This document shows positions 488 to 19,320 of a DNA stretch of 19,320 nucleotides, in pieces. Under the pieces are notes generated by a model. That model was not told where the DNA came from. It did not search any database and was given only the letters and a program-made list of their open reading frames with translations. The stretch is from a virus, in IMG/VR virus record IMGVR_UViG_3300045988_032762, positions 1-19,320 of that record; one strand, written 5' to 3'. Each line of letters starts with the position of its first letter. Position 1 is the stretch's first letter. Position numbers and translations under genes: made by a program.

Positions 488-519
488 GAAAAATATCGAC
501 TACAAGGGAGGTAAATAAA

Positions 520-762: not shown

Positions 763-766
763 TAAT

Positions 767-800: not shown

Positions 801-812
801 TATGCCGTCAAT

Positions 813-1490: not shown

Positions 1491-1491
1491 G

Positions 1492-1863
1492 TCAGTTCTC
1501 CTTCTTATGTTTGGGGGTGTTGTTTTGTGCGAATATGCTCATGAATGGTGCGTCCGCCAACTCTGGATTAATGGCGGTGATGTTTTCGAGGATTGAGGTG
1601 AGTTCGATAAGACTAATGCCGCCTACGGTGCATACAAATACGCTGACCGGAAGTCCGAGGTCAACGTGGAGGTTAATCATGTCCACGAAATATGCTACGA
1701 TGGTGAGCATGAGGTAGGCGAACTTGTGCCATAAGCCTTCTCGCATTTTTTGTGAGCTGACCGTGTCGTTGAGTATGGCTTTTGCAAGTCCGGTAACGTA
1801 GTCTACGATGCTAAAAAAGACTACCGCGAACACGCACCATACGTCCGTTGTGGTCATTGTCAT
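1492..1863 (-). CDS. Holin (phage_holin_4_1-like, multi-TM)
   Basis: 123 aa with several hydrophobic helices and a charged C-terminus (PKHKKEN). It sits immediately upstream of the endolysin and has an AGGAGG RBS. Confidence 0.75.
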   Translation of the reverse strand: MTMTTTDVWCVFAVVFFSIVDYVTGLAKAILNDTVSSQKMREGLWHKFAYLMLTIVAYFVDMINLHVDLGLPVSVFVCTVGGISLIELTSILENITAINPELADAPFMSIFAQNNTPKHKKEN

Positions 1864-1875
1864 TACTATTGCCTC

Positions 1876-2943: not shown

Positions 2944-2968
2944 GCCTGCTCACCCCCTGAAGAATAAT

Positions 2969-3002
2969 GGGAGCGTAACGTCATGACCACCGTTACGCTC
3001 CC
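2969..3002 (-). terminator. 12-bp GC-rich hairpin upstream of the ATPase gene; possible leaky terminator or attenuator
   Basis: GGGAGCGTAACG (2969..2980) pairs with CGTTACGCTCCC (2991..3002). On the minus strand it is followed by AUUAUUCUU. Confidence 0.4.
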
Positions 3003-3067
3003 CGTGTAGTTACGGTCGGCTCAAGGGAAGTTATCACATGCCGACATTTATTATTATATCACACACT

Positions 3068-4282: not shown

Positions 4283-4308
4283 ACTCTTATTATAAGAGTA
4301 TGGCTATT
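4274..4308. repeat. Perfect 35-nt palindrome (17-bp arms) covering the start codon of the tail hydrolase gene
   Basis: AATAGCCATACTCTTAT (4274..4290), a central t, then ATAAGAGTATGGCTATT (4292..4308). The ATG of the gene (4282..4280) lies inside one arm. Confidence 0.9.
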
Positions 4309-4315
4309 GTTTGAC

Positions 4316-5761: not shown

Positions 5762-5765
5762 TTGT

Positions 5766-5948
5766 TTAGTCCTTTTCGCGGATTTTCGTTTCGAGTTGGG
5801 TGAGGATCTGGTCGATCATGCGCATTGCATGATTGTATCCGTCGCGCATGTCCATTGGGGTTGCATCATTGTAGAGGGGCAACCCCCAATGACGTGTCGC
5901 ATCATATGCGGCAACGTCAACGGGGGTTGCTTGCGGTTGATCTGCCAT
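5766..5948 (-). CDS. 60-aa protein made essentially of the fibre N-terminal adaptor motif
   Basis: HWGLPLYNDATPMDMRDGYNHAMRMIDQIL is paralogous to residues 10-40 of the 481-aa fibre. Its stop codon overlaps the RBS of the fibre gene. Confidence 0.6.
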   Translation of the reverse strand: MADQPQATPVDVAAYDATRHWGLPLYNDATPMDMRDGYNHAMRMIDQILTQLETKIREKD

Positions 5949-5954
5949 GGTCTA

Positions 5955-6308
5955 TCAGATCCCCGAAGGGGTGGTGGACACGAACGGCAATCCCTCGGCG
6001 GTAACCTTGGTATCGGTAAGGTTCTTGGTCGTATACTGTCCGCCACCGGTTGCCGGAACGCGGTTGAGAAGATGATTAAGGGCTGTGCCAAGTGCATTAG
6101 CGTTCGCTGAGCTCAATCCGAGTGCGGTGGCAAACGCTTTCAGCCCTTCCGGCAAAGATTCCGGCGTTGGGATTGCATCAATCCTATCCGACTGCGTTTT
6201 AAGCGTCGTGTCGAGGATATCCATTGAACGATTGTATTGGCCTTCGAGGTTTGGCGCGTCGGTTGCGTCATATTTTTCAAGATTATAATTAGTGGTTTTC
6301 TGGGTCAT
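5955..6308 (-). CDS. 117-aa short tail-fibre-like protein with the same N-terminal adaptor motif
   Basis: NYNLEKYDATDAPNLEGQYNRSMDILDTTL matches the adaptor motif. It has a strong AGGAGG RBS. Confidence 0.7.
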   Translation of the reverse strand: MTQKTTNYNLEKYDATDAPNLEGQYNRSMDILDTTLKTQSDRIDAIPTPESLPEGLKAFATALGLSSANANALGTALNHLLNRVPATGGGQYTTKNLTDTKVTAEGLPFVSTTPSGI

Positions 6309-6330
6309 TTTTCCTCCTATTTATTGTTTA

Positions 6331-6930
6331 TTATTTATGGGTTTTCATGTAATTGTTTTCCACAATGCCGTTGGCGAGATTTTCGACCGTCAACGCCGTG
6401 ACCGGCTCGCCGTCATCCACGTGCACGTCACGGGGGGTGATGCGCGGCTCCTTATTGTGGAAAATGGTTTTGTTGCCGAGCACGGCAAACTCAAGACAGG
6501 TGTGCGCTGCTGCCATAGGTACGGACAATTGCGCCATCTGGTTAACTCGCGCACCAAATACGGCCAATTCGCGGTACATGTCTCGATTCGTATTTTTTGA
6601 ATCCTCGTATTTGCCTCGTGTCGGATTATACGTCAAGTCCGAGTCTTCGTACTGGCCTACCTGCTTCTCTAGATCGTCCAAGGTTTTATTGATGCGCTCG
6701 AACTGCTCGCCGAAACCGGCGACAAGCTGTTTGATCGCTTCAATGTCGGCGTTTTCGTCCTTGGCGAGATTATCGAGCTGCTCTCTGAGCTCGTCTAAAT
6801 GCTCGGCCACCTCCTGCACATACCCGAGCACGGTCAGCGTATCACGGTAGCTAAACGGCTGAACCGTCGTAAAATATCGTTGCCTTGGGTCGATATCCAA
6901 GGGGGCGGCGCACATGTTGATTCCGTCCAT
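6331..6930 (-). CDS. Structural-module protein of unknown function (199 aa, central coiled-coil-like segment)
   Basis: The ORF track starts at a TTG (6942). The ATG at 6930 has a GGAGG RBS (6936..6940) 5 nt upstream. It lies between the lower collar and fibre genes. Confidence 0.65.
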   Translation of the reverse strand: MDGINMCAAPLDIDPRQRYFTTVQPFSYRDTLTVLGYVQEVAEHLDELREQLDNLAKDENADIEAIKQLVAGFGEQFERINKTLDDLEKQVGQYEDSDLTYNPTRGKYEDSKNTNRDMYRELAVFGARVNQMAQLSVPMAAAHTCLEFAVLGNKTIFHNKEPRITPRDVHVDDGEPVTALTVENLANGIVENNYMKTHK

Positions 6931-6964
6931 GTAATCCTCCAATCTGTCTTAAATCAAGTATACT

Positions 6965-7777
6965 CTAGTGGCCGAAATTGTAGGCGAGTGACGTGGAATA
7001 CAATTGTGGCACGTTGGTCATGTTGTCGCCACTCCCCCACATCCCCATAAACAGGTCTTCCAGCGAGTTGATTACCATCATGTCGATGTTGAGCATGGTG
7101 TTACGCCAGTCGAGCAGCAATTGTGATTGCGACCCGCTGGTGCCGAGCGTATGCGACATGCTATTACCCTTATCGGAGGAATGCGCATAGTCGGTATTGC
7201 TGGTGCTGGTTGCGGTGGCCGAGCTGTCCTGCTGCGTGCTGGTATGCGTATTGCCGAGCGAGTCAGTCTGGGATGCGCTTGTGGCAAATTTTTTGAAATC
7301 GTCAATACGGGTCTGTGGGAATTCCGAATTAAAGGTCATGGACGAATTGTCCGCCTTAGTGTCGGACGTGCTGTTCGCAGTGGATTCGTTGGATTGCGTG
7401 CCCGAAGATTTGCCAGAAGATTCGTTAATGCTGGTCGAGTCCATCTCCTGCCGAATGTCGGACGTGATGAAAGGGTCGAACTTGCGTTGCGCAGATAAAT
7501 ATAATTGGTTGTAATAGTCCATTTGTTCGCGCATGGTACGCCCCAAATAAAAGACGAACATTTGTGGCGTTTCACTGCCGATTTCGCGTAATGCGTAGTG
7601 TGCTACGATTTTCTCATTCAATTTAATGCGATAGTTTTCGTCGAAAATCGGATAATAAGCGGAACTTAAATGCAGTTTTTCGTCCGTATCGAACCCACGG
7701 TCAATCAGATTACCCAAGGTCAACGTATAGTCCGCCATACTGTCCTTGATGGCGTACATACTCAAGTCCTGTACCAT
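6965..7777 (-). CDS. Lower collar protein (phi29 gp11 analogue)
   Basis: It lies immediately downstream of the connector gene and is coupled to it by a TAATG overlap. It is 270 aa with a Ser/Thr-rich central region. The call rests mainly on position. Confidence 0.55.
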   Translation of the reverse strand: MVQDLSMYAIKDSMADYTLTLGNLIDRGFDTDEKLHLSSAYYPIFDENYRIKLNEKIVAHYALREIGSETPQMFVFYLGRTMREQMDYYNQLYLSAQRKFDPFITSDIRQEMDSTSINESSGKSSGTQSNESTANSTSDTKADNSSMTFNSEFPQTRIDDFKKFATSASQTDSLGNTHTSTQQDSSATATSTSNTDYAHSSDKGNSMSHTLGTSGSQSQLLLDWRNTMLNIDMMVINSLEDLFMGMWGSGDNMTNVPQLYSTSLAYNFGH

Positions 7778-8721
7778 TATTCCTCCTCTTTGTCGCCGTC
7801 AACGTCCAGCAGACCGCCGGACGTGGTGTCGTTCCATTCGATACTGATTGGGTATCCGGAATCGGCCATTTGCGGCCATAATCGGTTAATCGTATCGCAC
7901 GCCTGCTGGCGTGCCTTAAGATAGCTCAGTCGGAACACGTTCGTACGGCTATTGCCTGCCGTCACTTCGCTTTCGAGCAATCGTTCTTTTTTTTCGGTGG
8001 TGCTATTATCGATGCCTAAATAGTTGACTAATTCATTCCATATCTGTGTCTTGGTGGTGATGATCTTATCAGCCAAAAAGGGGGTGACGTTGGGGAATGT
8101 CTGGAACATGCCGGTAATGTCCGCCGAGTCGTACGTGTAAATATAGGGGTCACCGTCTTCCCTTGCCTTCATCAAATTTTGGGCGGTGAGTTTGTTGGTT
8201 TCGGACGTGGCGATGATCAGCGGAACGGAAATGTTATCAAGATTTACATCCAGCGCGCGGTCTGCGATGGCGAGTCGTGTCGCATAATTCCACATGACAT
8301 CAATCATCGTGCACCTGAGCTGGTTATCCCAAATGGGTACGCATTCCTTGCTGCCGATCTGCGGATGCGAATAGCTGGTAGCAACCGGCTGGAACGATGT
8401 CGGATTATTATAATTGTTTACCCCCCCGATATTGCCCGAAGTGACCATAAAACGGTTCACACCCTTGCGCTTGTCGGGGAAAAAGAGGGCGAGACCGTTT
8501 TCAAAAAGCGTCAATTCCAAATATCTTTCGTCAATATACGGGGGGAGGTTAATCCATTTAAAGCGACTTACGGCCAGCATTTCGATCAATTTCATATACT
8601 GGCTGATGCGTAATGATTGCCGCATTTCGGGGAGGTTAAGATTGCCCCACATGCTGCCGAGCACGCTCTGATTATCCCAGTGCGCGGCCTTGCGCGCATT
8701 ATTGCGTTTACCCATAATCAC
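7777..8721 (-). CDS. Upper collar / head-tail connector (portal), phi29 gp10-like
   Basis: RFKWINLPPYIDERYLELTLFENG and TEKKERLLESEV resemble gp10 LFEWENLPPTINPSFLEK and LEKKERMVTDEV. The track start is a GTG; the ATG at 8715 with an AGGA RBS is a likely alternative start. Confidence 0.88.
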   Translation of the reverse strand: MIMGKRNNARKAAHWDNQSVLGSMWGNLNLPEMRQSLRISQYMKLIEMLAVSRFKWINLPPYIDERYLELTLFENGLALFFPDKRKGVNRFMVTSGNIGGVNNYNNPTSFQPVATSYSHPQIGSKECVPIWDNQLRCTMIDVMWNYATRLAIADRALDVNLDNISVPLIIATSETNKLTAQNLMKAREDGDPYIYTYDSADITGMFQTFPNVTPFLADKIITTKTQIWNELVNYLGIDNSTTEKKERLLESEVTAGNSRTNVFRLSYLKARQQACDTINRLWPQMADSGYPISIEWNDTTSGGLLDVDGDKEEE

Positions 8722-8727
8722 CGTCCT

Positions 8728-8767
8728 AAAAAATAATGGAGAGAGTCTAATATGCTCTCTCCATTAT
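8728..8767 (-). terminator. Intrinsic terminator after the tail knob gene
   Basis: A 13-bp stem (ATAATGGAGAGAG at 8733..8745 with CTCTCTCCATTAT at 8755..8767) is followed by a U-run on the minus strand (plus-strand A-run at 8728..8733). Confidence 0.65.
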
Positions 8768-8772
8768 ACCCT

Positions 8773-11004
8773 TTAGTATGCGATGCCAGCTAGTGGCGCA
8801 TTGTCCGCATAGTCGGTGACACCGATCTTGTCGGGGTCGGTCCATACGGTCACGCCGGACTCAAAAATACCCTTGACGGTCAATCGGTATTCTTCGGGAC
8901 ATGTGCTCGAACGTACGTACAACTCATGGAGCTTCCAATATGTGAAATTACTCATGGCCATCAAATTTTCGGGCAGTTTCATAAACCGCTGGACGTAATA
9001 CCCGTACCTTAACCATACCTCACCGATGGCCTGCATGGCGGCTGGGGGTATCTGCCGGAAACGCACCATGACACCAATCAACCCGTTAGCCAAATTGAAT
9101 GCATCACCGCCCAACGCGCCCGACGTGGTAGGGGGTACCGTCTGTGTCTGCTGCACTTGGGCGTTGATACCGGCGATGGTGTTTTCGTAATCGCCTTGCG
9201 CGGTGGCCTGCGCCAACTGTCTGTTCGTGTCGGCTAGCTGCATGGTCTGCTGATTGGACAAATTTGTTTGCGCGAGCGAGTATGCATTGGCTTGTGAGGT
9301 TGTTGCGGCGTTGGTGGTAAAAGTGTTGGAGAGTGCTTGTGAGTTGCTGGACACGCTGTTATCGTATGATTGTTGGTTTGCCCATGCGCCGATGGCTGTT
9401 CCTGCGATAGCGCCTACCGCGCCTCCCACATTGCCGGTTGCGAGAGACCCGATGGCGTTGGCGGCACCTGACCCTACCGTGTTGATCTGATTCATACGAT
9501 TGTTAAAACTCAGGTTTTTCAAGGTCAGGTCGGAAGACATTTGAGCACTTTGATTGTTGATCGCCATCATTGCATTACGGTTCGCGGTGCCGAGCTTGTT
9601 TTGTTCGTTTGCGTACTGTGTGCCGATCTGTGCCTGAGCGTACGCGTTGTTGATGCCCATCTGGGTTTTCTGATACCCCCAATCGGCGCTCTGCTGCGCA
9701 TAGGCACGTGTGTAGGCACTGTTCGCGAGAGCCAAGGCAGACCCGTTATTGACGGCCATAAAGGTTGGAAAATTGGTGATGCCAAATGATGCGTTCAGCA
9801 TTTCGCCAGTATCGATCGGCAATCCTTTGCCGTCCGGCAACGGTTGACGGTCACCGAGATTGCCCGCATGATATCCGCGCGCGTAAAAATTCAAACGTGG
9901 AGAGGGGGGCGCATAATTCCACGTCTCCCTGATGATCAGATCGACAGATGGTATCTGCTCCGGCTCGTATGTGATGACCGTACCATTGAGACACGAGCAT
10001 TCGATATACGCGTAGGGGGCAGTAAGGAATTTCTTCAGATACTGGTATCGTTCCGGTAGCTGGAACATGTCGCGGAAATTTTTGAGGTTGATAATATCAT
10101 CATACCTGTCCTGACTGTCTGTAGCACTGGCTCCCATTTCCCAGCAATTGCCGATAAAATGCACGTCCTTACCGAAAAGTTTCGTGACTTTTGCACCCCA
10201 GTGTGTGAGTCTGTCAGGCAGTGACGGTACCGCGAAAATTCCGCAAATGCCCTGTGTGACCCATGGTGAGGTTGCTCCACCGTCAAAAAACCTGCCAATG
10301 TCTAGTGGATTGTCGAGGTAGTAGACTTCCGTTCCGTTTGCCTGTGATTCGAAAAAGCTGCCGCTAGCAGACTGGATAGTGGGGTTGTCTTTGGTGCCGG
10401 AGTCCACAGATAGGGAGGTGGTCGAAAGTATGATGATACCAAATTTCAAATTATGACCGTCCACTACGCCCATAAGCGGCTTCCAGTATTCGTTGGTGAG
10501 TACGGTGCATTTGCCCGTGTCGAGTCCTTCGGGCAAATCCAAATAGGTTTTGCCCCAGTCTTTCCATGCGTTTTCGTTGGCAACCCCAACATGCCCTCTT
10601 TCGACGTAGGCGTTGCCGAGCTGGATATCATGTTGGAAACTCTGCCACACATCCAATTGGATGTTGAGTTGCGTTGTGTTGGCGTTAATATAGTCGCATG
10701 TCTGGACGAAATAATACCAACTGCGTGGCGTGTCGAAATCATAATCGTTCGTGGCGATCAAATAATTATATTGGCTTGCTTGCGCGAACGGTACCGGCAA
10801 TCGTACCGGCAACCCGTATTTGGCCATGGTGCAGTCGGTAAATTCGATGCCATCCAAACGGTCGAAATACTCTTTTTGAGACTGCTTATCCCATTTGACA
10901 ATATCCCTGTACCCCATATCCCAAGGTACGTTACATAGTTTAAATCTTGTGTTTGGCGTCCACTTGGCGTACGAAAAGTTGATTGGCAAGTCGTTTGCGC
11001 TCAT
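8773..11004 (-). CDS. Tail knob protein, phi29 gp9-like, with a Gln/Asn-rich insert and a Gly/Ala-rich hydrophobic loop
   Basis: N-terminal WYYFVQTCDYINANTTQLNIQLDVWQSF resembles gp9 [29 protein letters not shown]. Size and position fit. It has an AGGAGG RBS. Confidence 0.8.
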   Translation of the reverse strand: MSANDLPINFSYAKWTPNTRFKLCNVPWDMGYRDIVKWDKQSQKEYFDRLDGIEFTDCTMAKYGLPVRLPVPFAQASQYNYLIATNDYDFDTPRSWYYFVQTCDYINANTTQLNIQLDVWQSFQHDIQLGNAYVERGHVGVANENAWKDWGKTYLDLPEGLDTGKCTVLTNEYWKPLMGVVDGHNLKFGIIILSTTSLSVDSGTKDNPTIQSASGSFFESQANGTEVYYLDNPLDIGRFFDGGATSPWVTQGICGIFAVPSLPDRLTHWGAKVTKLFGKDVHFIGNCWEMGASATDSQDRYDDIINLKNFRDMFQLPERYQYLKKFLTAPYAYIECSCLNGTVITYEPEQIPSVDLIIRETWNYAPPSPRLNFYARGYHAGNLGDRQPLPDGKGLPIDTGEMLNASFGITNFPTFMAVNNGSALALANSAYTRAYAQQSADWGYQKTQMGINNAYAQAQIGTQYANEQNKLGTANRNAMMAINNQSAQMSSDLTLKNLSFNNRMNQINTVGSGAANAIGSLATGNVGGAVGAIAGTAIGAWANQQSYDNSVSSNSQALSNTFTTNAATTSQANAYSLAQTNLSNQQTMQLADTNRQLAQATAQGDYENTIAGINAQVQQTQTVPPTTSGALGGDAFNLANGLIGVMVRFRQIPPAAMQAIGEVWLRYGYYVQRFMKLPENLMAMSNFTYWKLHELYVRSSTCPEEYRLTVKGIFESGVTVWTDPDKIGVTDYADNAPLAGIAY

Positions 11005-11015
11005 AAAATCCTCCT

Positions 11016-11055
11016 AAAAAATAATAGGTGTGGATAAAGTCTATCCACACCTATT
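11016..11055 (-). terminator. Intrinsic terminator after the major capsid gene
   Basis: A 14-bp stem (AATAGGTGTGGATA at 11023..11036 with TATCCACACCTATT at 11042..11055) is followed by a U-run on the minus strand (plus-strand A-run at 11016..11021). Confidence 0.7.
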
Positions 11056-11069
11056 CTATCGACTATCGC

Positions 11070-12794
11070 TTAACCTTTGGCAGCAATGATGACTTGAGTA
11101 CCACCTTGCGCTCCCGCAAACTTTGCGACAACGTTAACAGTACTTGCCACCTTACCGGTCAGCACACCGTTAGGGGTGATAGTCGCGTTACTGCCGCCAA
11201 CAATCCATAGTGCGAGATTGGTTACGTCGGCTTCATTGCCGTCCGTCTTGGTGGCAATGGCCTTAAGTGCCGTAGACTCATCGACTTTGATATTTTTATT
11301 ACCCCGAATCTCAATGGACTTGATGGCTCCCGTCTTCCAGCCGCCGAGCCATTCGCCGACAACCGGCACGGACAATGCTGCGGAAACCGTCTGGTCGATC
11401 TCGGGGTGGGCGGGGTCGATATAGGTTGCCTGAGCGGTGACCTTGAGGATTTCGGCGGTTTCGTCGAGACCGCAGCGCAGAATACCCCCGTTGTCGATCG
11501 AGGTGGACTGTGAAGTCGCACCCTCGACGGCATACTTTATGCCGATCGGCTGGAAGCTTGCAGCATCCTTATTGGCGCTGGTGATCTCAGACTCAACCTG
11601 CACCAAGTCACCGCGCGACACGTTCTCGGGGGTAACCGATGGCTGACCATATTTCATCACACGCAAGGTGAACTTTGGCGTGGATGTGGTGAGCGTATCC
11701 GGCAATGTCACGGACTCAGAGGAGCCTTCGCCCGTCCAAAACAGGACGGCATTCGCAAACGGATTAGGGGTAATGCTGCCCCTATGCTTGTAGAAAATGT
11801 TCCTCGTGCCGTCAATCGGATTCACGGGGGAATTCGTGGTTTCCAACATTTCGTCCCAACAAAAGAAGAAGTCTTCGGTGGTCAGCACGGCCTGAACCTT
11901 GCCACCGGCACCGCCGATACCAAACATGTCCTCGGGAATCGGAATGATACGATACGGCACGTTGACCTTATCGATATTAAAGGCTGCGGCCAATGCTTCC
12001 ACGTTGAGCGCTGCGATCACCTGCGGGGTCGCGAACAGAATCGCTTCGGAATCACGCCATGGGGTAACCCACGACATGGCATTATAGCGCGGCATGGCCG
12101 ACATTGGGGATGCCTTAAGTTCGTTCGCGGTCTGCTGAATCAAGCGCAAAAGATTTTTCGCATCCGCTTCGGTGGAGTCAGCGGCACCTACGTCCTTGGT
12201 GTGGACTCGGTAGAATCCACCCTTACGAGCATACTCGGCGAAACACTGTGTCTTCATCAGGTACATATCATTACGGTCCGAGAGAATCGGGGCGTTCATG
12301 ATTTCCGCAATGTAATCTGCCATTCCCGACTCGCCGTCGAAAGCGGTCAGCAGCGCGTCTTCAGGGATGGTGACGGGGTAGTAGTGGTCGAAAGTAAGGG
12401 GGTGGAATACGCTTGCGGTCGGCAGCGAATAACGCCCGTAAACATCGTCTCCAAGATATTCCTTGTTAAAGTTACGGGTGCGTGCCTTGACAAGGCCAAC
12501 CGCGGCCTGTTCATAAGTGCTTCCGTAACGCTTCAGAGTACGTGGGGAGCCGATCAGCTTGAGCGGGTCATCCCAATCAGCGTGCTGGATGTACAAGCCG
12601 ATCAAGCGCTGAATCAATACCCCCGTGAATTCGTCGCGTAAGTAAGGAAAATTGCGCATGGTATCCACCGCATTACGGATATTGCCCTGTGTCGCAGACG
12701 GAATACGCACCTGGAACTGCGGGGAAGTGGCGTTGCGGACGGCGTTGAAGATTTCAACGTCACCCTTACCAGCCAACGGTCGAATATTGGTCAT
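11070..12794 (-). CDS. Major capsid protein with C-terminal Big_2 (bacterial Ig-like) domain, phi29 gp8-like architecture
   Basis: 574 aa, directly downstream of the scaffold gene. The C-terminal ~80 aa (IEIRGNKNIKVDESTALKAIATKTDGNEADVT...VVAKFAG) is a typical Big_2 sequence. A terminator follows. Confidence 0.8.
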   Translation of the reverse strand: MTNIRPLAGKGDVEIFNAVRNATSPQFQVRIPSATQGNIRNAVDTMRNFPYLRDEFTGVLIQRLIGLYIQHADWDDPLKLIGSPRTLKRYGSTYEQAAVGLVKARTRNFNKEYLGDDVYGRYSLPTASVFHPLTFDHYYPVTIPEDALLTAFDGESGMADYIAEIMNAPILSDRNDMYLMKTQCFAEYARKGGFYRVHTKDVGAADSTEADAKNLLRLIQQTANELKASPMSAMPRYNAMSWVTPWRDSEAILFATPQVIAALNVEALAAAFNIDKVNVPYRIIPIPEDMFGIGGAGGKVQAVLTTEDFFFCWDEMLETTNSPVNPIDGTRNIFYKHRGSITPNPFANAVLFWTGEGSSESVTLPDTLTTSTPKFTLRVMKYGQPSVTPENVSRGDLVQVESEITSANKDAASFQPIGIKYAVEGATSQSTSIDNGGILRCGLDETAEILKVTAQATYIDPAHPEIDQTVSAALSVPVVGEWLGGWKTGAIKSIEIRGNKNIKVDESTALKAIATKTDGNEADVTNLALWIVGGSNATITPNGVLTGKVASTVNVVAKFAGAQGGTQVIIAAKG

Positions 12795-12810
12795 TGTTTA
12801 TTCCTTTCTT

Positions 12811-13092
12811 TTAGTCGAATAGATCTTCGATGGACTCTTGGGTTTCGTCGCCGTCACCGTCATTGTCGGTTGGGGCGGGTTCGGTGTATCCGAGCGTGTC
12901 CATCATGGCCTTGAGCGCGGCCAATTCCTTCTCGATCGAATCAAGTCGCGCGCTCACGTCCGGTTCGGACGGTTCCGGTTCCTGCTCAGGTCCTTTCGGC
13001 TTGATTTCATCATCGACGGTTTCGGTTCGCTTCTCTTCTTCGGTGGGCGGCGGGGTGGTGTTTTCGTCGCTCTCATTGTTTGGGTCTGCCAT
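12811..13092 (-). CDS. Scaffolding protein (gp7 analogue)
   Basis: 93 aa, very acidic, helical or low-complexity, immediately upstream of the capsid gene. It has an AGGAG RBS. Confidence 0.6.
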   Translation of the reverse strand: MADPNNESDENTTPPPTEEEKRTETVDDEIKPKGPEQEPEPSEPDVSARLDSIEKELAALKAMMDTLGYTEPAPTDNDGDGDETQESIEDLFD

Positions 13093-13127
13093 GCAAGCTC
13101 CTATCTATCGGCAATGTTTCCATCAAA

Positions 13128-13136
13128 ATTATATCA
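13128..13136 (-). promoter_or_regulatory. Candidate structural-gene (late) promoter, extended -10 TGaTATAAT
   Basis: On the minus strand GCATGATATAATTTTG lies just downstream of the terminator at 13146..13177 and about 35 nt upstream of the scaffold ATG. There is no recognisable -35. Confidence 0.5.
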
Positions 13137-13145
13137 TGCGGCGGG

Positions 13146-13177
13146 AAAATAAAATGACCCTCCAATCACGGAGGGTC
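13146..13177 (-). terminator. Intrinsic terminator downstream of the DNA polymerase gene
   Basis: GACCCTCC (13156..13163) pairs with GGAGGGTC (13170..13177). On the minus strand it is followed by AUUUUAUUUU. Confidence 0.75.
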
Positions 13178-13312
13178 TGAATCGTCCTATGTGAGCGCGA
13201 GTCGAAAATCGTAGGGCACTACCGCCACAGTAGCAAATCATGGTTGGCGGCGTTTTCAGCCGAGGCAATCCAACCTATGTCTATCCCAGTCGAAAGTCAA
13301 CGCTCGAAAGAC
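13146..13312 (-). ncRNA. Candidate structured non-coding RNA of about 165 nt (possible packaging RNA, pRNA)
   Basis: The unit is bounded by the extended -10 TGCTATGAT (13319..13327, overlapping the polymerase stop codon) and the terminator at 13146..13177. It has no ORF with an RBS. It contains GC-rich complementary segments: GGTTGG/CCAACC, CCGCCA/TGGCGG and GAAAACG/CGaTTTTC. Confidence 0.3.
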
Positions 13313-13319
13313 AAACATA

Positions 13320-14771
13320 TCATAGCATAACCAATGTACCGTAATCGTCCATGACTTGCACGCCATGCCGGAATTGCTCATACGGGATAGGTTGGGAGAA
13401 CATGCTTCCAGCCATGCAAACGTCAACTTCACCGTCATCCCTCCATCCTTGATATCGGTTCATGCCCAATATCGTGAGCTTTTCGTACTGTGCGGCGATT
13501 TTCCATTTGCCTAGCTCGGTAGGGTGGATTTCGCATGACTTCACCGGCTCCCAGCCTGACAATATGCACCCGTCCGTATTGGCATAAAGCAGTCGATCAG
13601 AGTTGGCATGGCAGACGCCCATAAGCTTACGACGCGCGTAGGCGTTGACCCATACGGGCACGGGCAGATAGTCGGTTTTCAGATTCGATTCCCCTCTCTG
13701 TGCGATATCCCAGTTCAAGGTGATACCGTCTTTTGACATGGGAAGCATGACGGCCCCTTTGGGCAGACTTGCCATTTTGCCTACGAGCGCGTTCATGATC
13801 AGTTTCGCCATTTGCCGTTTCTCGCCTGTCTCGCGTTGTTTCAGTTCCCCCCATTCGTCGATGAACGAGCGGAAAAACCCCTTGCTTTTCCGGAACCGCC
13901 ACCCCCGCACATACTTGTAAACGCTCACTTCGTAATTGTCATATAAAAGTTGCTGGTCAATATCGGTGAGCACTCTTGTAATATATCCCCTAGTGCTGGT
14001 AAGTCGATTGAGTTCATACACGCTACGATTGTCTAATAGAAAGGGGTATCCGTTTGGTTTGAGTTCGGCGCGGAACGTGAGTTCGTCGCAATGCAATGGC
14101 ATGTCATCATCCTGCTCATACTTGCCGTCATATGATTCAGGTAGCCCCCATGGGAGCCATTCATCCCGCAATATGCTCGGATACATGCTATTGCAGTCAA
14201 CGTCGATGGCCTTACCGTATGCCCCCTCTCTTGCAACCATAAATCCGCCGATATAGGCGTCATGCAGTGACTTTTTATCTTCGGGCTGCAATTGTGGGAA
14301 TTTGTCGTAAAGCCACTTCCACTCGCCGGATGCGAACGCTTCCATGCTCGCTCCACCGGCTGTGATCTTGCACAAGCCGCGCCGATCGTACTCGCGCAAA
14401 ATGTTGAGCAGTTGAGTATCGGTCATGGTGAGCTTGCAGTTTTCCCGCAAAAGATTCGAAATATCGAAAAACCGCGCGGAATTTTCGCGGTCGATACGCA
14501 CGGTAAAACTAAAAAATTTGCCCTTTTTGGACACTATCGCGTCCCAGCTCAGGTTGGCGTTATGCTCATTATGGGGGAGAGAGTGCACGACATGTGCGAT
14601 AAACGGGTCTAAAATATCGGGGTTGCTCACGTAGACGGTGAGTCTGCCGCCCGTCATGATGGACGCCAAAAGACGATTAGGCGCGGCAACGTCACGTAAT
14701 ACGGTGCCGTCCGTAAAACGGATAACGTTATCCATACACCATAATCCAACTCTATTATCACTCACCACCAT
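13320..14771 (-). CDS. Protein-primed family-B DNA polymerase (phi29 gp2-like), compact at 483 aa
   Basis: Long collinear similarity to phi29 DNA polymerase. Examples: ITAGGASMEAF vs MTAGSDSLKGF; DVDCNSMYP vs DVNSLYP; KLIMNALVGK vs KLMLNSLYGK; LYANTDG vs IYCDTDS; LGKWK vs LGYWA. Confidence 0.92.
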   Translation of the reverse strand: MVVSDNRVGLWCMDNVIRFTDGTVLRDVAAPNRLLASIMTGGRLTVYVSNPDILDPFIAHVVHSLPHNEHNANLSWDAIVSKKGKFFSFTVRIDRENSARFFDISNLLRENCKLTMTDTQLLNILREYDRRGLCKITAGGASMEAFASGEWKWLYDKFPQLQPEDKKSLHDAYIGGFMVAREGAYGKAIDVDCNSMYPSILRDEWLPWGLPESYDGKYEQDDDMPLHCDELTFRAELKPNGYPFLLDNRSVYELNRLTSTRGYITRVLTDIDQQLLYDNYEVSVYKYVRGWRFRKSKGFFRSFIDEWGELKQRETGEKRQMAKLIMNALVGKMASLPKGAVMLPMSKDGITLNWDIAQRGESNLKTDYLPVPVWVNAYARRKLMGVCHANSDRLLYANTDGCILSGWEPVKSCEIHPTELGKWKIAAQYEKLTILGMNRYQGWRDDGEVDVCMAGSMFSQPIPYEQFRHGVQVMDDYGTLVML

Positions 14772-14789
14772 AGTATATAACTTCCCTTG

Positions 14790-15860
14790 TTATTGACCGC
14801 TACTTTCCAACGCGCCCGCTTCCGCTATCCACCGGTCGAACTGCCTTCGTGAACGCTGATAGCCCTCACTGTTGCCTCGGAAAACTGAGGCGAAACCGTG
14901 CCGAACGGGGTCATACACCGTCCAGTCGAACACAATACGGGGGGCGTCTGTCTGTTCGATAAACGCTCTCTTTTGCGCTGCGGATAGGCTGCGGAATCGT
15001 TTCAATCGTTTCGAACCTAGTGAGGTGGCCAAGATTTTTTCAAAAACCTCATAACGCCGGCGACTCATGTAGGACGGCCACTCGTGCTCACCGTACAGGT
15101 CTGTACTCTTTTTGCCCGTCCCCTGTCTTTTGGACGTTTTGCGTTTCTGTTCGGTGCGCAATCCCAAGATTTCGGCTGCGTCATGCATCTGCTCAAGCAG
15201 TTCCTTACGGTGACCGCTCTCCAATTGCGATCTTACAAAAGCTTCGTCACTCAGGACGTTTGCCATTTGCAGAAAATCAGTGAGTTTCGATGGGATGATC
15301 TGAGTGCGTCCGAAACCCTCGCCGGTAGTTCCGGTGATTTCGGCCATACGCTGATCGTACACGCTACGCTGTGGCATGGCCTGTTCGCGGTTCCATTCGT
15401 TGATTTTTCGCCGTGCCGCGTTGATTTTACGCTGCTGCTGCCGTAACAGTTTGCGCCGTTTCGCGACGGGTTCCGCCTGAATCTGCGCGTCCGATATGGG
15501 CGTGCGTTGGGCAAACATAATGTCTTTTTTCGTCGGCTTTTCCACGGCGGTGGCATGATATGTGGTTGCTTTCGCTTCCGCTATGGCCTGTTTCTTCTGC
15601 CGTTCCCATTCTTTGCCCAATGTTTTCGCGATATTGACCAATTGCTTGTCGGCGGTTTTGGCGAGATTCGAGTGAGAATACGAGCCGAGTTTGCTAATGT
15701 TACGGGCGGCGCGTGCTTCCGCTGCCTGTCTTGCCTTGACGTGCTTGCGTGCCTTGCTGTCCGCCTTGATGGCTACCGTGCCGATGCCGGTATTGTGGGC
15801 GCGAGTGGTGTAGTGCTGACTTGCGACTGCTCGGGGTGATTTTCTTTGCTTGCGTGACAT
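14790..15860 (-). CDS. Candidate terminal (priming) protein
   Basis: It lies immediately upstream of the polymerase gene, as phi29 gene 3 does. It is 356 aa and strongly basic (rich in K, R, Q and A). I could see no direct similarity to phi29 TP; the call is positional. Confidence 0.5.
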   Translation of the reverse strand: MSRKQRKSPRAVASQHYTTRAHNTGIGTVAIKADSKARKHVKARQAAEARAARNISKLGSYSHSNLAKTADKQLVNIAKTLGKEWERQKKQAIAEAKATTYHATAVEKPTKKDIMFAQRTPISDAQIQAEPVAKRRKLLRQQQRKINAARRKINEWNREQAMPQRSVYDQRMAEITGTTGEGFGRTQIIPSKLTDFLQMANVLSDEAFVRSQLESGHRKELLEQMHDAAEILGLRTEQKRKTSKRQGTGKKSTDLYGEHEWPSYMSRRRYEVFEKILATSLGSKRLKRFRSLSAAQKRAFIEQTDAPRIVFDWTVYDPVRHGFASVFRGNSEGYQRSRRQFDRWIAEAGALESSGQ

Positions 15861-15927
15861 GTGCAGTCCTTAAGATGGCAAGAGCACCCAAGATTGGGTG
15901 CTCTCTATGAACGAACGCTACTTAACG

Positions 15928-15936
15928 ATTATAGCA
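15928..15936 (-). promoter_or_regulatory. Candidate promoter for the TP-polymerase genes, extended -10 TGcTATAAT
   Basis: On the minus strand CTTGCTATAATCG lies just after the SSB stop codon. A 10-bp hairpin follows (15881..15904), then the RBS AAGGA and the ATG at 15860. Confidence 0.45.
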
Positions 15937-15939
15937 AGA

Positions 15940-16374
15940 TCACTTGCTCTCTTCGTCCACCGGCTCAATGCTGAAAAACTTGAAGCCACGGCGGGAACGA
16001 CGTTCCACAACCTTGATGGCAAGCGGTGCTTCCCAAGTATTTGGTGTACCGAAGATTCCGAACATTGTATTCAATCCAGCCGCCAAAGTGGGGGAGGTGG
16101 CCGCATACGCCTTGTTGTCATCGGTAACGATGACGACACGCACGGTATTAGAGATTTCGCCCGTCTGATCGTCCGTCACCTGTACGGCCTGAGCGACGGC
16201 ATTCACCATGTTCAGTGTTTCGTTCAAATGTTCATCAAGCTTTTCAGCATTCTGCAATGCCGAGTAGAGCTTGATCTTGCCTTCGCGGGTGGAAGTGTCG
16301 ATGAAGTGCTGGACGGTGCCGAGTTCGGTGCTTTCGGTGTTGAATGCGACAAGTGCGGTGTTGGTGTTTTCCAT
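15940..16374 (-). CDS. Single-stranded DNA-binding protein, phi29 p5-like
   Basis: Starts MENTN as I recall phi29 p5 does. C-terminal KAYAATSPTLAAGL...IKVVERRSRRGFKFFSIEP resembles p5 SLYSAISKTVAEAA...VKVVQGTSSKGNVFFSLQL. It sits upstream of the TP and polymerase genes. Confidence 0.6.
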   Translation of the reverse strand: MENTNTALVAFNTESTELGTVQHFIDTSTREGKIKLYSALQNAEKLDEHLNETLNMVNAVAQAVQVTDDQTGEISNTVRVVIVTDDNKAYAATSPTLAAGLNTMFGIFGTPNTWEAPLAIKVVERRSRRGFKFFSIEPVDEESK

Positions 16375-16434
16375 GATATTACCTTCCCTTATATATTGTT
16401 GTTATTTTATTTTTCAGGCTTATGCCTAAAATCT

Positions 16435-16443
16435 TTTATATCA
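16435..16443 (-). promoter_or_regulatory. Possible promoter for the SSB gene, extended -10-like TGaTATAAA
   Basis: On the minus strand CATGTGATATAAAAG overlaps the stop codon of the upstream gene. The RBS AAGGGAAGG precedes the SSB ATG. Confidence 0.3.
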
Positions 16444-16755
16444 CATGCCATCATTATTTTCAATTTCGGCGTGTCGTTTTGTATGTTCTTCGGGGGTCCA
16501 TTCTTGCGGCTCACCGAAAGTCGCATACTTGTAAAAAGTTTCCTCATTCATGGAGACTTTTTGCGAAAAAATATTGATGGAGCGTGGAATGAAGTTAGGA
16601 AACAGTTTCTTCGCACGAATCGAATACGCGCGCTCGTCCTTAAGTCGCCCGTCGATAACATGCTCGGCTTCCATAAAATCGCCGTCAACAAGCTCCATAC
16701 CCTTGAGCACGGCATACACGCGCGTTCGAAAAATATCGGTTTTGGTTCTAGCCAA
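16441..16755 (-). CDS. Candidate dsDNA-binding, histone-like protein (phi29 p6 analogue), TTG start
   Basis: 104 aa, the length I recall for p6. It has a basic N-terminus, VDGD (p6 has VDGE) and an acidic C-terminal tail. It lies directly upstream of the SSB gene, as gene 6 precedes gene 5 in phi29. A strong GGGGAGGT RBS precedes the TTG. Confidence 0.4.
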   Translation of the reverse strand: MARTKTDIFRTRVYAVLKGMELVDGDFMEAEHVIDGRLKDERAYSIRAKKLFPNFIPRSINIFSQKVSMNEETFYKYATFGEPQEWTPEEHTKRHAEIENNDGM

Positions 16756-16757
16756 CT

Positions 16758-17276
16758 TTACCTCCCCTGTAGTAAGATTTTTTGCAATTCAACATCATTA
16801 TAACGTGTCGTATCCAGTCTGTCAAAATTTTTAAACACAGCGATAATCAGATTTTGAGCTTGTGGACTGTTAAAGACCGTGCAGCAATCATATGACGTGC
16901 ATCCTTTGACGGCGCAGACGGCGCACCATGCAATCAGATTAGGCGGGTTGATAGTACCGTCCAAATATTCCACATCATACGTGCTGGACAGGGCGGCGGA
17001 AAAACCGTCTGATATGGTCATGCTCCCGCAAATCTGCGATACGACAATTATTGCTTGCGTAAACCATGTGCTAACCCCGTCGCGCCACAATTCACACAAC
17101 ATAGCGACTGCACGGCAGCATGTCTCAAAATCACCATACCCCTTATCATACCGTTTCAAATTCAGGTCACGTTTCCGGCCTTCCGTAGCCTTGACAATAC
17201 GTGGCGATTCCATGATCGCATCATCAAACCGGCGCATACGATAAATTGGCATCCTATCATTGCCGCGGTTAAACAT
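16758..17276 (-). CDS. Cys-rich protein of unknown function (172 aa from the revised start)
   Basis: The track start (17318) has no RBS. The ATG at 17276 has GAAAGG 7 nt upstream and overlaps the stop of the upstream 58-aa ORF (ATGTTTAA). Confidence 0.65.
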   Translation of the reverse strand: MFNRGNDRMPIYRMRRFDDAIMESPRIVKATEGRKRDLNLKRYDKGYGDFETCCRAVAMLCELWRDGVSTWFTQAIIVVSQICGSMTISDGFSAALSSTYDVEYLDGTINPPNLIAWCAVCAVKGCTSYDCCTVFNSPQAQNLIIAVFKNFDRLDTTRYNDVELQKILLQGR

Positions 17277-17445
17277 AATAGCGCCTTTCGACCCTAAAAT
17301 ATGCAATATTACGTACATGTGTGGGTACAGCCGCCCACTTGCGAATCAGCTCAGCGGCCTTATCGTATGACATGGCATACCCCACTTCAATAGGGGGTTT
17401 ATCGCCATGCCTCAAATATGCAAGTGCAACAAAAGTCTCATACAT
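17269..17445 (-). CDS. Small early ORF (58 aa), below the ORF-track cutoff
   Basis: Hand translation: MYETFVALAYLRHGDKPPIEVGYAMSYDKAAELIRKWAAVPTHVRNIAYFRVERRYYV. It fills the gap between neighbouring genes with coupled stop/start junctions. Confidence 0.5.
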   Translation of the reverse strand: MYETFVALAYLRHGDKPPIEVGYAMSYDKAAELIRKWAAVPTHVRNIAYFRVERRYYV

Positions 17446-17447
17446 GA

Positions 17448-17651
17448 TTAAAATTCCAGTCCCTCACTATCAGACTCGGCACCGAGCCACCACATGTCAA
17501 ACCACAAGTCCGTACTCGGACACCGTTTCGGCGGTGTAAAAGCGTCACCCTTACGTTTCGCTCCCGCCCAAAACACACGCAAACGCCAATACACATCCGC
17601 ATAAGCGCAGTCCTTGCAAATCCACGAATGCATAAACCCACGAAAATACAT
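17448..17651 (-). CDS. Trp-rich 67-aa early protein with a CxxC motif, function unknown
   Basis: The ORF is packed tightly against its neighbours. This frame is preferred over the overlapping 17438..17641 frame because its junctions fit. Confidence 0.55.
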   Translation of the reverse strand: MYFRGFMHSWICKDCAYADVYWRLRVFWAGAKRKGDAFTPPKRCPSTDLWFDMWWLGAESDSEGLEF

Positions 17652-17653
17652 GA

Positions 17654-17899
17654 CTAATCCCTATCCAATAATGGCGTACGTGCGATATCGATAGCGTCCA
17701 ACATAAGATCAACCACCTGACTACCATCACCCGCATCATACGCACACAATGCAGTCGCATTGCAAAACCCGGCTGAAGTGCGGAATCGGACGGCATACCT
17801 CAACTCATACCGTTGACCGTGAGGACAATACCACAATCCCACATTACCCCCCACAAACTGCGAGGAAAACGTAGCAACCTTCATATCATGCTCAGCCAT
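17654..17899 (-). CDS. 81-aa early protein, function unknown
   Basis: ORF with a GAAAGG RBS, tightly packed against its neighbours. Confidence 0.6.
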   Translation of the reverse strand: MAEHDMKVATFSSQFVGGNVGLWYCPHGQRYELRYAVRFRTSAGFCNATALCAYDAGDGSQVVDLMLDAIDIARTPLLDRD

Positions 17900-17900
17900 T

Positions 17901-18068
17901 TCAAAAACCTTTCACGACAAAAACCAAAACCATAGCCACACTTACCGCAAGCATGACCAAAAAACAAAACGTGTCACGCCAATCACGCGGCAACTCGCAA
18001 AACACCGCAGCAGCCATCGTAAGAAACAGTACGGAAAGTATGCAGACGGCAACAATCATGCCCACCAT
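17901..18068 (-). CDS. Small two-TM membrane protein (55 aa), below the ORF-track cutoff
   Basis: Hand translation: MVGMIVAVCILSVLFLTMAAAVFCELPRDWRDTFCFLVMLAVSVAMVLVFVVKGF. Its ATG overlaps the upstream stop (TAATG). Two hydrophobic helices flank a charged loop. Confidence 0.6.
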   Translation of the reverse strand: MVGMIVAVCILSVLFLTMAAAVFCELPRDWRDTFCFLVMLAVSVAMVLVFVVKGF

Positions 18069-18298
18069 TATACCAACACCACCTTAACCACGCCAACCAT
18101 AGTACTATCCATGTCAAACGTGGCATTATCAATATCCACATCTACCTCCACTCCGACGTGCATATTCCTGATATAAGACAGCACCCCGTCTAACGAGGAT
18201 TTCAGAGACGCCGTGAAGAACATACCACTCGGCTTTACACAATCAGGCAGAATCTCGAAAACCTGAAAACCATCATCAGTGATAATAAAATACCACAT
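18068..18298 (-). CDS. 76-aa early protein, function unknown
   Basis: ORF with a GGAGGT RBS (18305..18310). Confidence 0.65.
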   Translation of the reverse strand: MWYFIITDDGFQVFEILPDCVKPSGMFFTASLKSSLDGVLSYIRNMHVGVEVDVDIDNATFDMDSTMVGVVKVVLV

Positions 18299-18312
18299 TT
18301 ACTTACCTCCAA

Positions 18313-18543
18313 TCAGCTCTCAACACGATTAGAGCGGTAATAGTCAATACCATTAGTAGACCGCTCAAACCTCATACGAGAAATCGTGACGCCATAATAT
18401 TTGAACAGTATGCGACGAACACGAGCTTTCGCCTCACTCAAGGTAGCGACCTCACCAAGACTGAACGTATAAACATTCTCAATATCAGTAAAAGCAACCA
18501 CAACCCAATCACGCGCCCAATCAATAGCGATAATAGTATTCAT
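18313..18543 (-). CDS. 76-aa early protein, function unknown (start revised to ATG)
   Basis: The track start is a TTG at 18558. The ATG at 18543 has a GGAGGT RBS (18551..18556) 7 nt upstream. Confidence 0.6.
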   Translation of the reverse strand: MNTIIAIDWARDWVVVAFTDIENVYTFSLGEVATLSEAKARVRRILFKYYGVTISRMRFERSTNGIDYYRSNRVES

Positions 18544-18558
18544 TTTGTCTACCTCCAA

Positions 18559-18801
18559 TCAGTGAATCAAGGCGTCGGATACCGCTTCCGCGATAGTATC
18601 CCCAGTTCCCAAGACAACGGCAGGGCTGCAATAATCAGCGTAAACGGCATAAAACACATCAACCGCGTCCACCTTACATCCATCTTCGGTAGTGCGATAG
18701 TATGGCATCTCAACCCTCTTGACGCAAGCGCGCGCCATCAATTCCCGCACACTCTCGATACTAACGACAGCTTCCTTTGCGATTTGCTTATAATTTTCCA
18801 T
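18559..18801 (-). CDS. 80-aa first gene of the right-arm early operon; its promoter, RBS and ATG come from the ITR
   Basis: The ATG at 18801..18799 is the last triplet of the right ITR. C-terminal GTGDTIAEAVSDAL loosely resembles small alpha/beta HicB-like folds. Confidence 0.7.
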   Translation of the reverse strand: MENYKQIAKEAVVSIESVRELMARACVKRVEMPYYRTTEDGCKVDAVDVFYAVYADYCSPAVVLGTGDTIAEAVSDALIH

Positions 18802-18926
18802 TTTATTTACCTCCCTTGTAGTCGATATTTTTCATTATAGCATAAACAAAACAACGACACGCCCGAAAACAAAACAACATAAAAAAGCCTCCCAGTTATT
18901 AACCGAGAGGCTTCTACTATTACCTA

Positions 18927-19127
18927 TCACGCATTCTCGAACGCTTCAATAAAATCATCATTCGGAAACGAATCACAATCGTTATAATCCTCAATGGTCA
19001 TATTATTGACCACAGCCACATGATGCAGATTCTCAACAATCATGTCAAGGTCAAAATCGTCGAGCTGCTGACCGCTGTTCATGATGTAATCTTCGACGTA
19101 ATCCTTGATGATGCTATTGTTAATCAT
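18927..19127 (-). CDS. Hyper-acidic 66-aa ITR protein (right copy, identical to 194..394)
   Basis: The translation in the ORF track is identical, and it lies inside the perfect ITR. Confidence 0.8.
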   Translation of the reverse strand: MINNSIIKDYVEDYIMNSGQQLDDFDLDMIVENLHHVAVVNNMTIEDYNDCDSFPNDDFIEAFENA

Positions 19128-19225
19128 TTTATTTTTTCCTTTCCCTTGAAGCTGATAACTACACTATAACACAAACAAAAACACGACACGCCCGAAAACA
19201 AACGACACGCCGGAAATAAAAAAAC

Positions 19226-19254
19226 TTGACAAACTGGCGCGAAAAAAATATAAT
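19226..19254 (+). promoter_or_regulatory. Outward-facing consensus promoter in the right ITR (mirror of 67..95)
   Basis: TTGACA at 19226..19231, a 17-nt spacer, TATAAT at 19249..19254. It points towards the right terminus. Confidence 0.6.
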
Positions 19255-19320
19255 AAGACAAGAAACACAACAAAGCGACAAAGACGCCACAGAACAAAAA
19301 AAAATAAAATGATTAACAAT

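Follow-up and report, generated by a model that had tools for sequence, protein, structure and literature searches.

The viral record IMGVR_UViG_3300045988_032762 raises the question of what is specified by the largest gap between its genes. The window analysed here, a stretch of 19,320 nucleotides (nt) covering positions 1 to 19,320 of that record, has this gap between a DNA polymerase gene and an open reading frame (ORF) of 93 amino acids (aa), and a first-pass annotation made from the sequence had proposed that a unit of about 165 nt within it is a candidate packaging RNA, the prohead RNA (pRNA) of phi29-type motors. We find there a non-coding RNA that has signals of its own and is strongly conserved; its fold is proven by covariation, and it has a covarying loop-loop complementarity. 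It is most likely a pRNA of a new sequence family, in a new host phylum and at an internal genome position; that it acts as this phage's packaging RNA, forming a ring on the connector that docks the packaging ATPase, is probable by analogy with phi29. The proposal is supported on each of the counts considered below: transcription signals, absence of coding, conservation, a covarying fold, a kissing contact and the motor proteins of the phage.

The unit has its own transcription signals. At its upstream end is an extended -10 promoter, TGCTATGAT, and the TGA within it is the stop codon of the polymerase gene (13320-13322), an overlap that the first-pass annotation had pointed out. The window has seven copies of the motif TGNTATRAT where 1.44 would be expected, a count that none of 200 shuffles reaches; because the copies are over-represented, all intergenic and correctly oriented toward genes, we read these boxes as the regular promoters of the phage, one of which would belong to the RNA unit. 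The RNA promoter has a 9-mer, TTATGCTAT, in common with both promoters of the terminal repeats (3 matches against 0.11 expected), in line with the earlier claim of a 9-mer common to this promoter and a terminal-repeat promoter. At the other end is a GC-rich hairpin followed by a U tract—a 9 base-pair (bp) stem with six G-C pairs, three of its pairs changed on both sides among relatives, and the tail AUUUUAUUUU—so that the clean intrinsic terminator described earlier is borne out, as is the separate promoter for the structural genes, a second extended -10 box, TGATATAAT, ahead of the head-gene operon. From these signals the RNA is predicted to begin at G13312, 6-7 nt past its -10 box, and to be about 160-167 nt long.

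One further property of the terminator is its loop, (C)GUGAUUG (13162-13169), which is invariant across the clade of the window though the stem co-varies. A plain terminator loop should not be so conserved; this one may therefore serve to bind a protein, or act as a functional "domain II".

The unit is non-coding, as had been claimed: the longest ORF within it varies from 5 to 39 aa among relatives, none is conserved, and the reading of the unit as the gene of a small protein was rejected for that reason. A tRNA scan and an Rfam scan of the window found no tRNA and no relevant family. Related loci, 80 in all, were collected by a polymerase-based scan of viral contigs, and every one of them has the element, which blastn detected except in the most distant locus, L081, where a covariance model recognised it. 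Identity to the window, calculated over 70 loci, is 81.7% for domain I of the RNA (nt 1-129), 80.4% for the last 300 nt of the polymerase gene, 81.7% for the 93-aa ORF and 83.1% for the start of the head gene. The RNA unit is as conserved as its flanking genes. The gap is unannotated in the records of Bifidobacterium phages BP1 and BD811P1-3 and in MT836241, and yet aligns with them at 80-82% identity.

For description of the fold, nt n of the RNA is position 13313-n of the window, nt 1 being G13312. Domain I consists of a long A helix made by its two ends, a three-way junction, and two arms, one formed by the C helix, a bulge in the 5' strand and the E hairpin, the other by the D hairpin. The A helix is paired in segments (1-5/125-129, 8-13/115-120, 15-16/108-109, 20-22/102-104, 26-28/97-99), the C helix at 34-36/72-74 and 38-43/66-71, and the E stem (51-54/62-65) appears in relatives as CGGC/GCCG, CACC/GGUG, CAGC/GCUG and CGAC/GUCG; downstream of domain I, the 3' hairpin occupies nt 136-157. 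The minimum free energy (MFE) structure of domain I, calculated from the single sequence, is exactly this fold, and RNAalifold finds the same fold independently. The loops invariant among relatives are those of the E hairpin, the GUGAUUG of the 3' hairpin, GACUGGGA and CCCUAC.

Covariation was measured in two sets of sequences. In the first, A3, an alignment of 80 sequences, 96.0% of cells are paired, versus 34-46% when the partners are slid by 1-3 columns; 19 pairs have changed in both partners, and in 500 shuffles these values were never attained. In the second, A7, 55 distinct sequences were aligned by fitting to R1, a covariance model built from domain I, which favours nested pairs; here 98.4% of cells are paired, 28 of the 43 pairs are changed on both sides, and every helix is supported, including the E stem. 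Slid registers of both sets together give 33-47% pairing. R1 finds the element in 60 of the 70 metagenome-scan loci, always directly after the polymerase gene, and finds it at 89.6 bits in L081, whose polymerase is only 64% identical and where the helices have been rewritten by compensatory changes. The search for secondary structure conserved among relatives, suggested as a check on the first proposal, thus yields a fold kept with compensatory changes in more than 100 of them.

The helices proposed earlier fared unequally. The pairing of GGTTGG with CCAACC stands, being the co-varying inner part of the C helix. That of CCGCCA with TGGCGG is complementary, shows no covariation and conflicts with the supported helices; CCGCCA (nt 63-68) was accordingly rejected as a partner of the D loop also, since it clashes with the C and E helices and does not co-vary. 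The enclosing GAAAACG/CGaTTTTC helix is without covariation too, is broken at two positions in 22-24 of the 80 sequences, and in its RNA form (GAAAACG/CGaUUUUC) was rejected on these grounds and for its conflict with the supported helices.

Within the E loop (13252-13258, nt 55-61) a separate covariation was seen: positions 58 and 61 are A/C in 42 sequences, G/U in 86 and G/C in 6, and never A/U. Such an isosteric wobble signature at i/i+3 of a 7-nt loop could mean that the two bases form a non-canonical pair, that they take part in a tertiary or intermolecular contact, or that haplotypes are linked.

The same data bear on the suggestion that the conserved stretch acts as DNA, as sites for transcription or replication proteins, or is an unconstrained spacer with structure that arose by chance. 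The site does lie between two promoters, where the phi29 regulators p4 and p6 act, and the folding z-score of domain I alone is only -1.1. That of the whole unit is -4.0, however, and neither DNA sites nor chance would account for compensatory change at up to 28 of 43 pairs, for shuffles and slid registers that fall so far short of the true register, or for a fold preserved in L081 through rewritten helices. Pairing is moreover strand-specific: 97.4% of cells are paired on the sense strand versus 89.9% on the opposite strand, with 9% of cells G.U, as appropriate to an RNA rather than a DNA element. Covariation effectively refutes this explanation, which we regard as extremely unlikely.

A hallmark of pRNA is the kissing contact between a bulge and a loop, and domain I has a candidate for it. 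Bulge nucleotides G47 C48 C49 A50 are complementary to U86 G87 G88 C89 of the D loop. In 115 unique sequences the pair 47-89 is G-C in 95, G.U in 10 and A-U in 10, and never A.C; the pair 48-88 is invariant. Since the kissing pairing is not part of R1, the counts for 47-89 are unbiased by the fitting of the alignment. On a neighbour-joining tree from which these columns were excluded, A47 has six origins in separate clades, all on a U89 background; U89 is found in only 17% of sequences, and the likelihood of six such origins by independence is about 0.17^6, or 3e-5. Known pRNAs have 2-5 kissing pairs (PMC4201828), and the complementarity of CE bulge and D loop found here, GCC(A) with (U)GGC, is of that order and co-varies. 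Because the window has U50, its own contact would consist of three G-C pairs. The bulge/loop complementarity first suggested, GUAG/CUAC, is not the kissing pair: these bases form the stem of the D hairpin.

How closely the RNA resembles known pRNAs was assessed by setting it beside the consensus structure of phi29 pRNA, taken from the Rfam model run on phi29 (145 bits), and beside the folds of Nf and GA-1 pRNAs. The features expected of a pRNA—A helix, three-way junction, C-E arm with a bulge in the 5' strand, and D hairpin—are all present, as seen by covariation, RNAalifold and MFE. Element by element, the A helix joins the 5' and 3' ends and is bulged in both RNAs; the C helix is 5 bp, a 1-nt bulge and 4 bp in phi29 versus 3, 1 and 6 in the window, making 9 bp each with the 1-nt bulge on the 5' strand; the bulge confined to the 5' strand is 9 versus 7 nt; the E helix is 4 bp in both, with a loop of 6 versus 7 nt; the C-D junction is 3 nt in both, the D helix 6 versus 7 bp and the D loop 5 nt in both; and both have the three-way junction, with no spacer (0 nt) between D and A. 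Bulge and D loop kiss at nt 45-48/82-85 in phi29, the counterpart in the window RNA being nt 47-50/86-89, and in each phage the first paired base is about 7 nt past the -10 box. The lengths are likewise comparable (phi29 174 nt, Nf 171, GA-1 161, window RNA about 165). Shared with phi29 too are the type of phage, its motor proteins and a dispensable-looking 3' hairpin, the counterpart of pRNA domain II.

Differences from phi29 include position and composition. Whereas the phi29 gene is at the left end of its genome, the window RNA gene is internal, between the polymerase and scaffold genes and on the same strand as all genes; and the RNA is GC-rich (53%), its host an actinobacterium. The layout has a precedent in GA-1, whose pRNA gene is also internal: its promoter overlaps the ORF upstream, it has a terminator of its own, and the next promoter follows at once. 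The pRNAs of GA-1, Nf/M2 and B103 have the phi29 fold with almost no sequence in common; unlike the window RNA, they are AT-rich and come from phages of Bacillus hosts, and experiments have shown them to multimerise and/or to sustain packaging.

We also derived a structural descriptor from the known pRNAs, and combined it with a threshold for A-helix energy set by the same pRNAs. With descriptor and energy together, the top-ranked site is the true pRNA in each of phi29, Nf and B103, and in the window it is the RNA site, at -21.0 kcal/mol with the next best at -14.6. Shuffled genomes give 0.23 descriptor matches each, so that the chance of one inside the pre-selected gap of 227 nt is about 1e-3. 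The combination misses the RNAs of GA-1 and L081, and produces spurious matches in GC-rich genomes; a loose descriptor without the energy criterion, giving about 5-8 spurious sites per genome, was discarded.

The window encodes proteins suited to such an RNA. Its PHROG gene set, the perfect inverted terminal repeats (ITRs) of 522 bp that form its ends (1-522 and 18799-19320; those of phi29 are 6 bp), and its closest records, Bifidobacterium phages BP1 (85.6% identity) and BD811P1-3 (about 75%), identify it as a complete phi29-like podophage of Bifidobacterium. The gp10 connector and gp16 ATPase credited to it in the first-pass annotation are confirmed by PHROG matches and by identities to their counterparts: the connector is 27% identical to phi29 gp10 (E 1e-33), and the ATPase about 29% identical to B103 gp16 across 95% of its length. 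The phage thus has a gp10-type connector together with a small ATPase of the gp16 type that lacks a nuclease domain. The connector's N-terminus is basic, MGKRNNARK, analogous to the pRNA-binding RKR of phi29 gp10.

That the RNA is stand-alone and structured does not by itself make it a pRNA. Promoter, terminator, covariation and conserved loops show a functional RNA, not its role, and it might act in trans in some other way—as an early-to-late switch, by titrating a protein or in anti-defence—with a merely convergent resemblance to pRNA. Consistent with this are the lack of sequence homology to any pRNA, the location at the boundary of replication and structural modules, and the invariant loops (those listed above), which could bind any protein. 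On such an account, however, the match of topology and helix lengths element by element, the covarying bulge/D-loop complementarity at the pRNA kissing positions, and the matching size and gene layout in a phage with pRNA-needing motor proteins would all be coincidence; nor does any Rfam family match. We judge another role in trans unlikely. The resemblance of the window RNA to known pRNAs may be due to homology or to convergence, since they have no similarity of sequence or at the level of covariance models.

Homologous, syntenic RNAs occur in two further clades, one of Bifidobacterium asteroides phages (BadAztec/BadAargau), the other a gut clade (L096, L286 and L287). Like the window, these have an extended -10 box overlapping the polymerase stop codon, followed by a covarying long 5'/3' helix, a C helix, a 5'-strand bulge, a 4-bp E hairpin and the D loop YGUGGYG, which is conserved in the three clades. 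Their bulge ends in AACC, the phi29 kissing tetranucleotide in the same place, and the complementarity of (G/A)CC with GG(C/U) is kept in them as bulge ACC and loop GGU. The loop of the 3' hairpin in L096 (3038-3068), CGUGAUUG, is common to the window clade, where it is invariant. The internal topology given here for the BadAztec type is tentative, since over its 6-8 sequences RNAalifold prefers an alternative hairpin. A search for relatives of the BadAztec polymerase alone found only BadAztec1 itself, and in a scan of genome contigs for a 16-mer of the E-hairpin core, to which about 1,000 chance matches were expected, the RNA was in none of the 80 matches listed.

In the BadAztec and L096 clades the RNA is followed by a GC hairpin that has no U tract, the start codon of the scaffold gene following about 25 nt on, which suggests that the RNA is there processed from late mRNA or has an extra role in cis. 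This leader position, with no second promoter to separate RNA from late operon, is the main argument for taking the element in general as a cis-acting part of mRNA: a 3' untranslated region or terminator of the replication operon, a structured 5' leader controlling read-through into the head genes or their translation, or both. The window itself has a terminator between two promoters, as such a role would allow. In the window clade, however, a nearly invariant promoter follows the terminator and the RNA is equally conserved; late mRNA can start there downstream of the RNA, which would make its control in cis impossible and speaks for a role in trans. The first nucleotide of the structure coincides with the start site predicted for the unit's own promoter, an ordinary terminator or leader has no need of a 129-nt three-way-junction fold with covarying loop-loop complementarity, and no riboswitch or leader family matches. 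A role in cis is thus distinctly improbable.

Several observations weigh against identification as pRNA. The A-C junction is 5 nt in the window RNA versus 1 nt in phi29 (1-3 in known pRNAs), and the E loop has its 7 nt where known pRNAs have 6. The kissing helix of the window is only 3 bp, owing to a U50.U86 mismatch; closure of the D loop by G85-C89 inside one molecule is an alternative, and the loop-loop pairing could form an intramolecular pseudoknot rather than a contact between molecules. The descriptor is weak when used alone, 20 of 100 shuffled genomes giving a match somewhere. Lack of a U tract and second promoter in the BadAztec and L096 clades makes their RNAs resemble a 5' leader of the head operon. 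R1 has no hit on phi29; nor did it match Av-1 or BadAztec1, being too clade-specific for remote detection. Finally, the Rfam search proposed in the first-pass annotation, now carried out, gave no match for the window RNA, whether at the gathering score or with E relaxed to 5-10, and the pRNA family RF00044 does not recognise it.

This last result is uninformative. RF00044 ("3WJ core of Phi29 pRNA", gathering score 100 bits) misses the pRNAs of B103, GA-1 and Nf also (L161, L162 and L163 in our collection), and its silence on the window therefore carries no weight. The Rfam scans brought up no different locus matching the pRNA model. As a general observation, Rfam annotation of pRNA is blind outside the phi29/PZA group.

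If the RNA is a pRNA, its working can be outlined from sequence signals and conservation, from the covarying fold and, for the later steps, by analogy with phi29. Host RNA polymerase would start at about G13312 from the extended -10 promoter and stop at the U-tailed hairpin (13177-13146). Nucleotides 1-129, as covariation shows, fold from the bulged A helix through the three-way junction into the C/bulge/E arm and the D-hairpin arm. G47 C48 C49 in the bulge of one RNA (with A50 in most relatives) would then pair with U86 G87 G88 C89 of the next, so that five or six copies could form a closed ring encircling the connector's basic N-termini on the empty prohead. The gp16-type ATPase would be docked by the A helices that stick out; it lacks a nuclease domain and could not hold the connector unaided. 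The ATPase would pump the genome, capped by terminal protein, into the head, and the RNA would leave before the tail is attached.

A 2024 review treats pRNA as confined, so far as is known, to phi29 and its relatives among Bacillus phages (PMC11476376). Predictions outside this group exist for Cp-1 and Av-1; these are single-sequence predictions without covariation, versus more than 100 sequences for the window RNA. For the Streptococcus phage Cp-1, a covariance model derived from Bacillus phages could not reliably find the putative pRNA (PMC6266182). Neither the text of the paper describing BP1 nor that on Ayka contains pRNA. Tentatively, we suggest that prohead RNA is ancestral and widespread in phi29-type motors and goes unseen as its sequence drifts past the reach of covariance models, that the podophages of Bifidobacterium, an actinobacterium, include at least three divergent clades of it, and that in some of these it is released from the 5' leader of head-gene mRNA.

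Were this so, release from a leader would tie the supply of motor RNA to the expression of prohead proteins. A pRNA-like RNA backed by covariation in phages of another phylum, Actinomycetota, would show dependence on RNA to be a general property of the motors of phi29-like phages. It would matter, too, for the dispute between two views of pRNA, as a relic of ancient origin or as something that later took the place of a lost protein domain. To our knowledge, pRNA is the only natural RNA that forms a functional ring of identical molecules. It is widely used in RNA nanotechnology, and the RNA described here would add to it a new three-way-junction scaffold that is GC-rich and comes with sequence variants from nature. 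A stretch left without annotation in the records of BP1 and BD811P1-3, and in over 100 contigs from gut viromes, would also be accounted for. The proposal is directly testable, since the same RNA is carried by phages in culture, BP1 (on B. pseudocatenulatum U19) and BD811P1-3 (on B. dentium DA811).

Table 1. Position of the RNA unit, its structural elements and the genes referred to; coordinates are those of the window except for the sister-clade RNAs, which are given in their own genomes.
Feature	Position	Strand	Basis or remark
Non-coding gap	13093-13319	minus	polymerase ORF upstream, 93-aa ORF downstream
Non-coding RNA unit	13146-13327	minus	own promoter to U tract
Extended -10 promoter of RNA gene, TGCTATGAT	13319-13327	minus	box count; conserved in 80 relatives
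RNA domain I (nt 1-129)	13184-13312	minus	MFE equals covariation-supported fold; model R1 137.5 bits
A helix, 5' strand (nt 1-28)	13285-13312	minus	pairs with nt 97-129, both partners having changed
A helix, 3' strand (nt 97-129)	13184-13216	minus	contains invariant CCCUAC
C helix, 5' strand (nt 34-43), CAU-A-GGUUGG, 1-nt bulge	13270-13279	minus	both partners changed in 7 of 9 pairs
C helix, 3' strand (nt 66-74), CCAACC-AUG	13239-13247	minus	covariation
CE bulge (nt 44-50), AUUGCCU	13263-13269	minus	G47 C48 C49 (A50 in most relatives) complementary to D loop
E hairpin (nt 51-65), 4-bp stem CGGC/GCCG, 7-nt loop UGAAAAC	13248-13262	minus	stem co-varies
D hairpin (nt 78-96), 7-bp stem 78-84/90-96, 5-nt loop GUGGC (13224-13228)	13217-13235	minus	both partners changed in 7 of 7 stem pairs
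3' hairpin and U tract, intrinsic terminator	13146-13177	minus	stem 13156-13177, U tract 13146-13155
Second extended -10 promoter, head-gene operon, TGATATAAT	13128-13136	minus	nearly invariant in 80 relatives
Ribosome-binding site AGGAG of 93-aa ORF	13098-13102	minus	
93-aa ORF, presumed scaffold gene	12811-13092 (ATG 13090-13092)	minus	precedes capsid gene
Protein-primed-type DNA polymerase gene	13320-14771	minus	PHROG profile
Major head protein gene	11070-12794	minus	PHROG profile
Upper collar connector gene	7777-8721	minus	PHROG upper collar, 8e-55
gp16-type packaging ATPase gene, 355 aa	1876-2943	minus	PHROG terminase phrog_2150, 2e-60
Sister-clade RNA, BadAztec1 (L088)	12680-12857		
Sister-clade RNA, L096	2893-3090		
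Sister-clade RNA, L286			
Sister-clade RNA, L287			

All long ORFs of the window are on the minus strand, and PHROG profiles identify among them, besides those listed in Table 1, genes for a tail protein, a lower collar protein and an endolysin. The acidic 93-aa ORF found no match in the PHROG search; its role as scaffold is presumed from three things, its location ahead of the head gene, a size close to the 98 aa of phi29 gp7, and a conserved MAD start.

A GenBank annotation of pRNA already exists in an actinobacterial phage. The record of Actinomyces phage Av-1 (L089) carries a misc_RNA named "packaging RNA", which proved no more stable than shuffled sequence (z = +0.53). It lies at 16295-16402, where it overlaps ORFs B and C on the opposite strand. 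Elsewhere in Av-1, the gap at 4471-4611, after pol/ORF7 and syntenic with the window RNA, has strong structure (z = -4.1), with a 14-bp hairpin and U tract at its end just before ORF8.

Some features of the window outside the RNA unit were also observed. The polymerase is short, 483 aa versus 575 aa in phi29; it matches only positions 189-580 of the 629 in profile phrog_1907, and its first ~120 residues match nothing. Upstream of it, a 356-aa ORF (14790-15860) without a PHROG match is presumably, by its position, the gene of the terminal protein. Each ITR holds a 41-nt internal direct repeat, at 119-159 and 448-488, the copies being 88% identical and ending in the -10-like boxes TGTTATAGTG and TGCTATAATG. 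The ITRs thus appear to carry two related promoters, directed from the outside inward and having in common the upstream element TTTGTTTTCGGGCGTGTCG.

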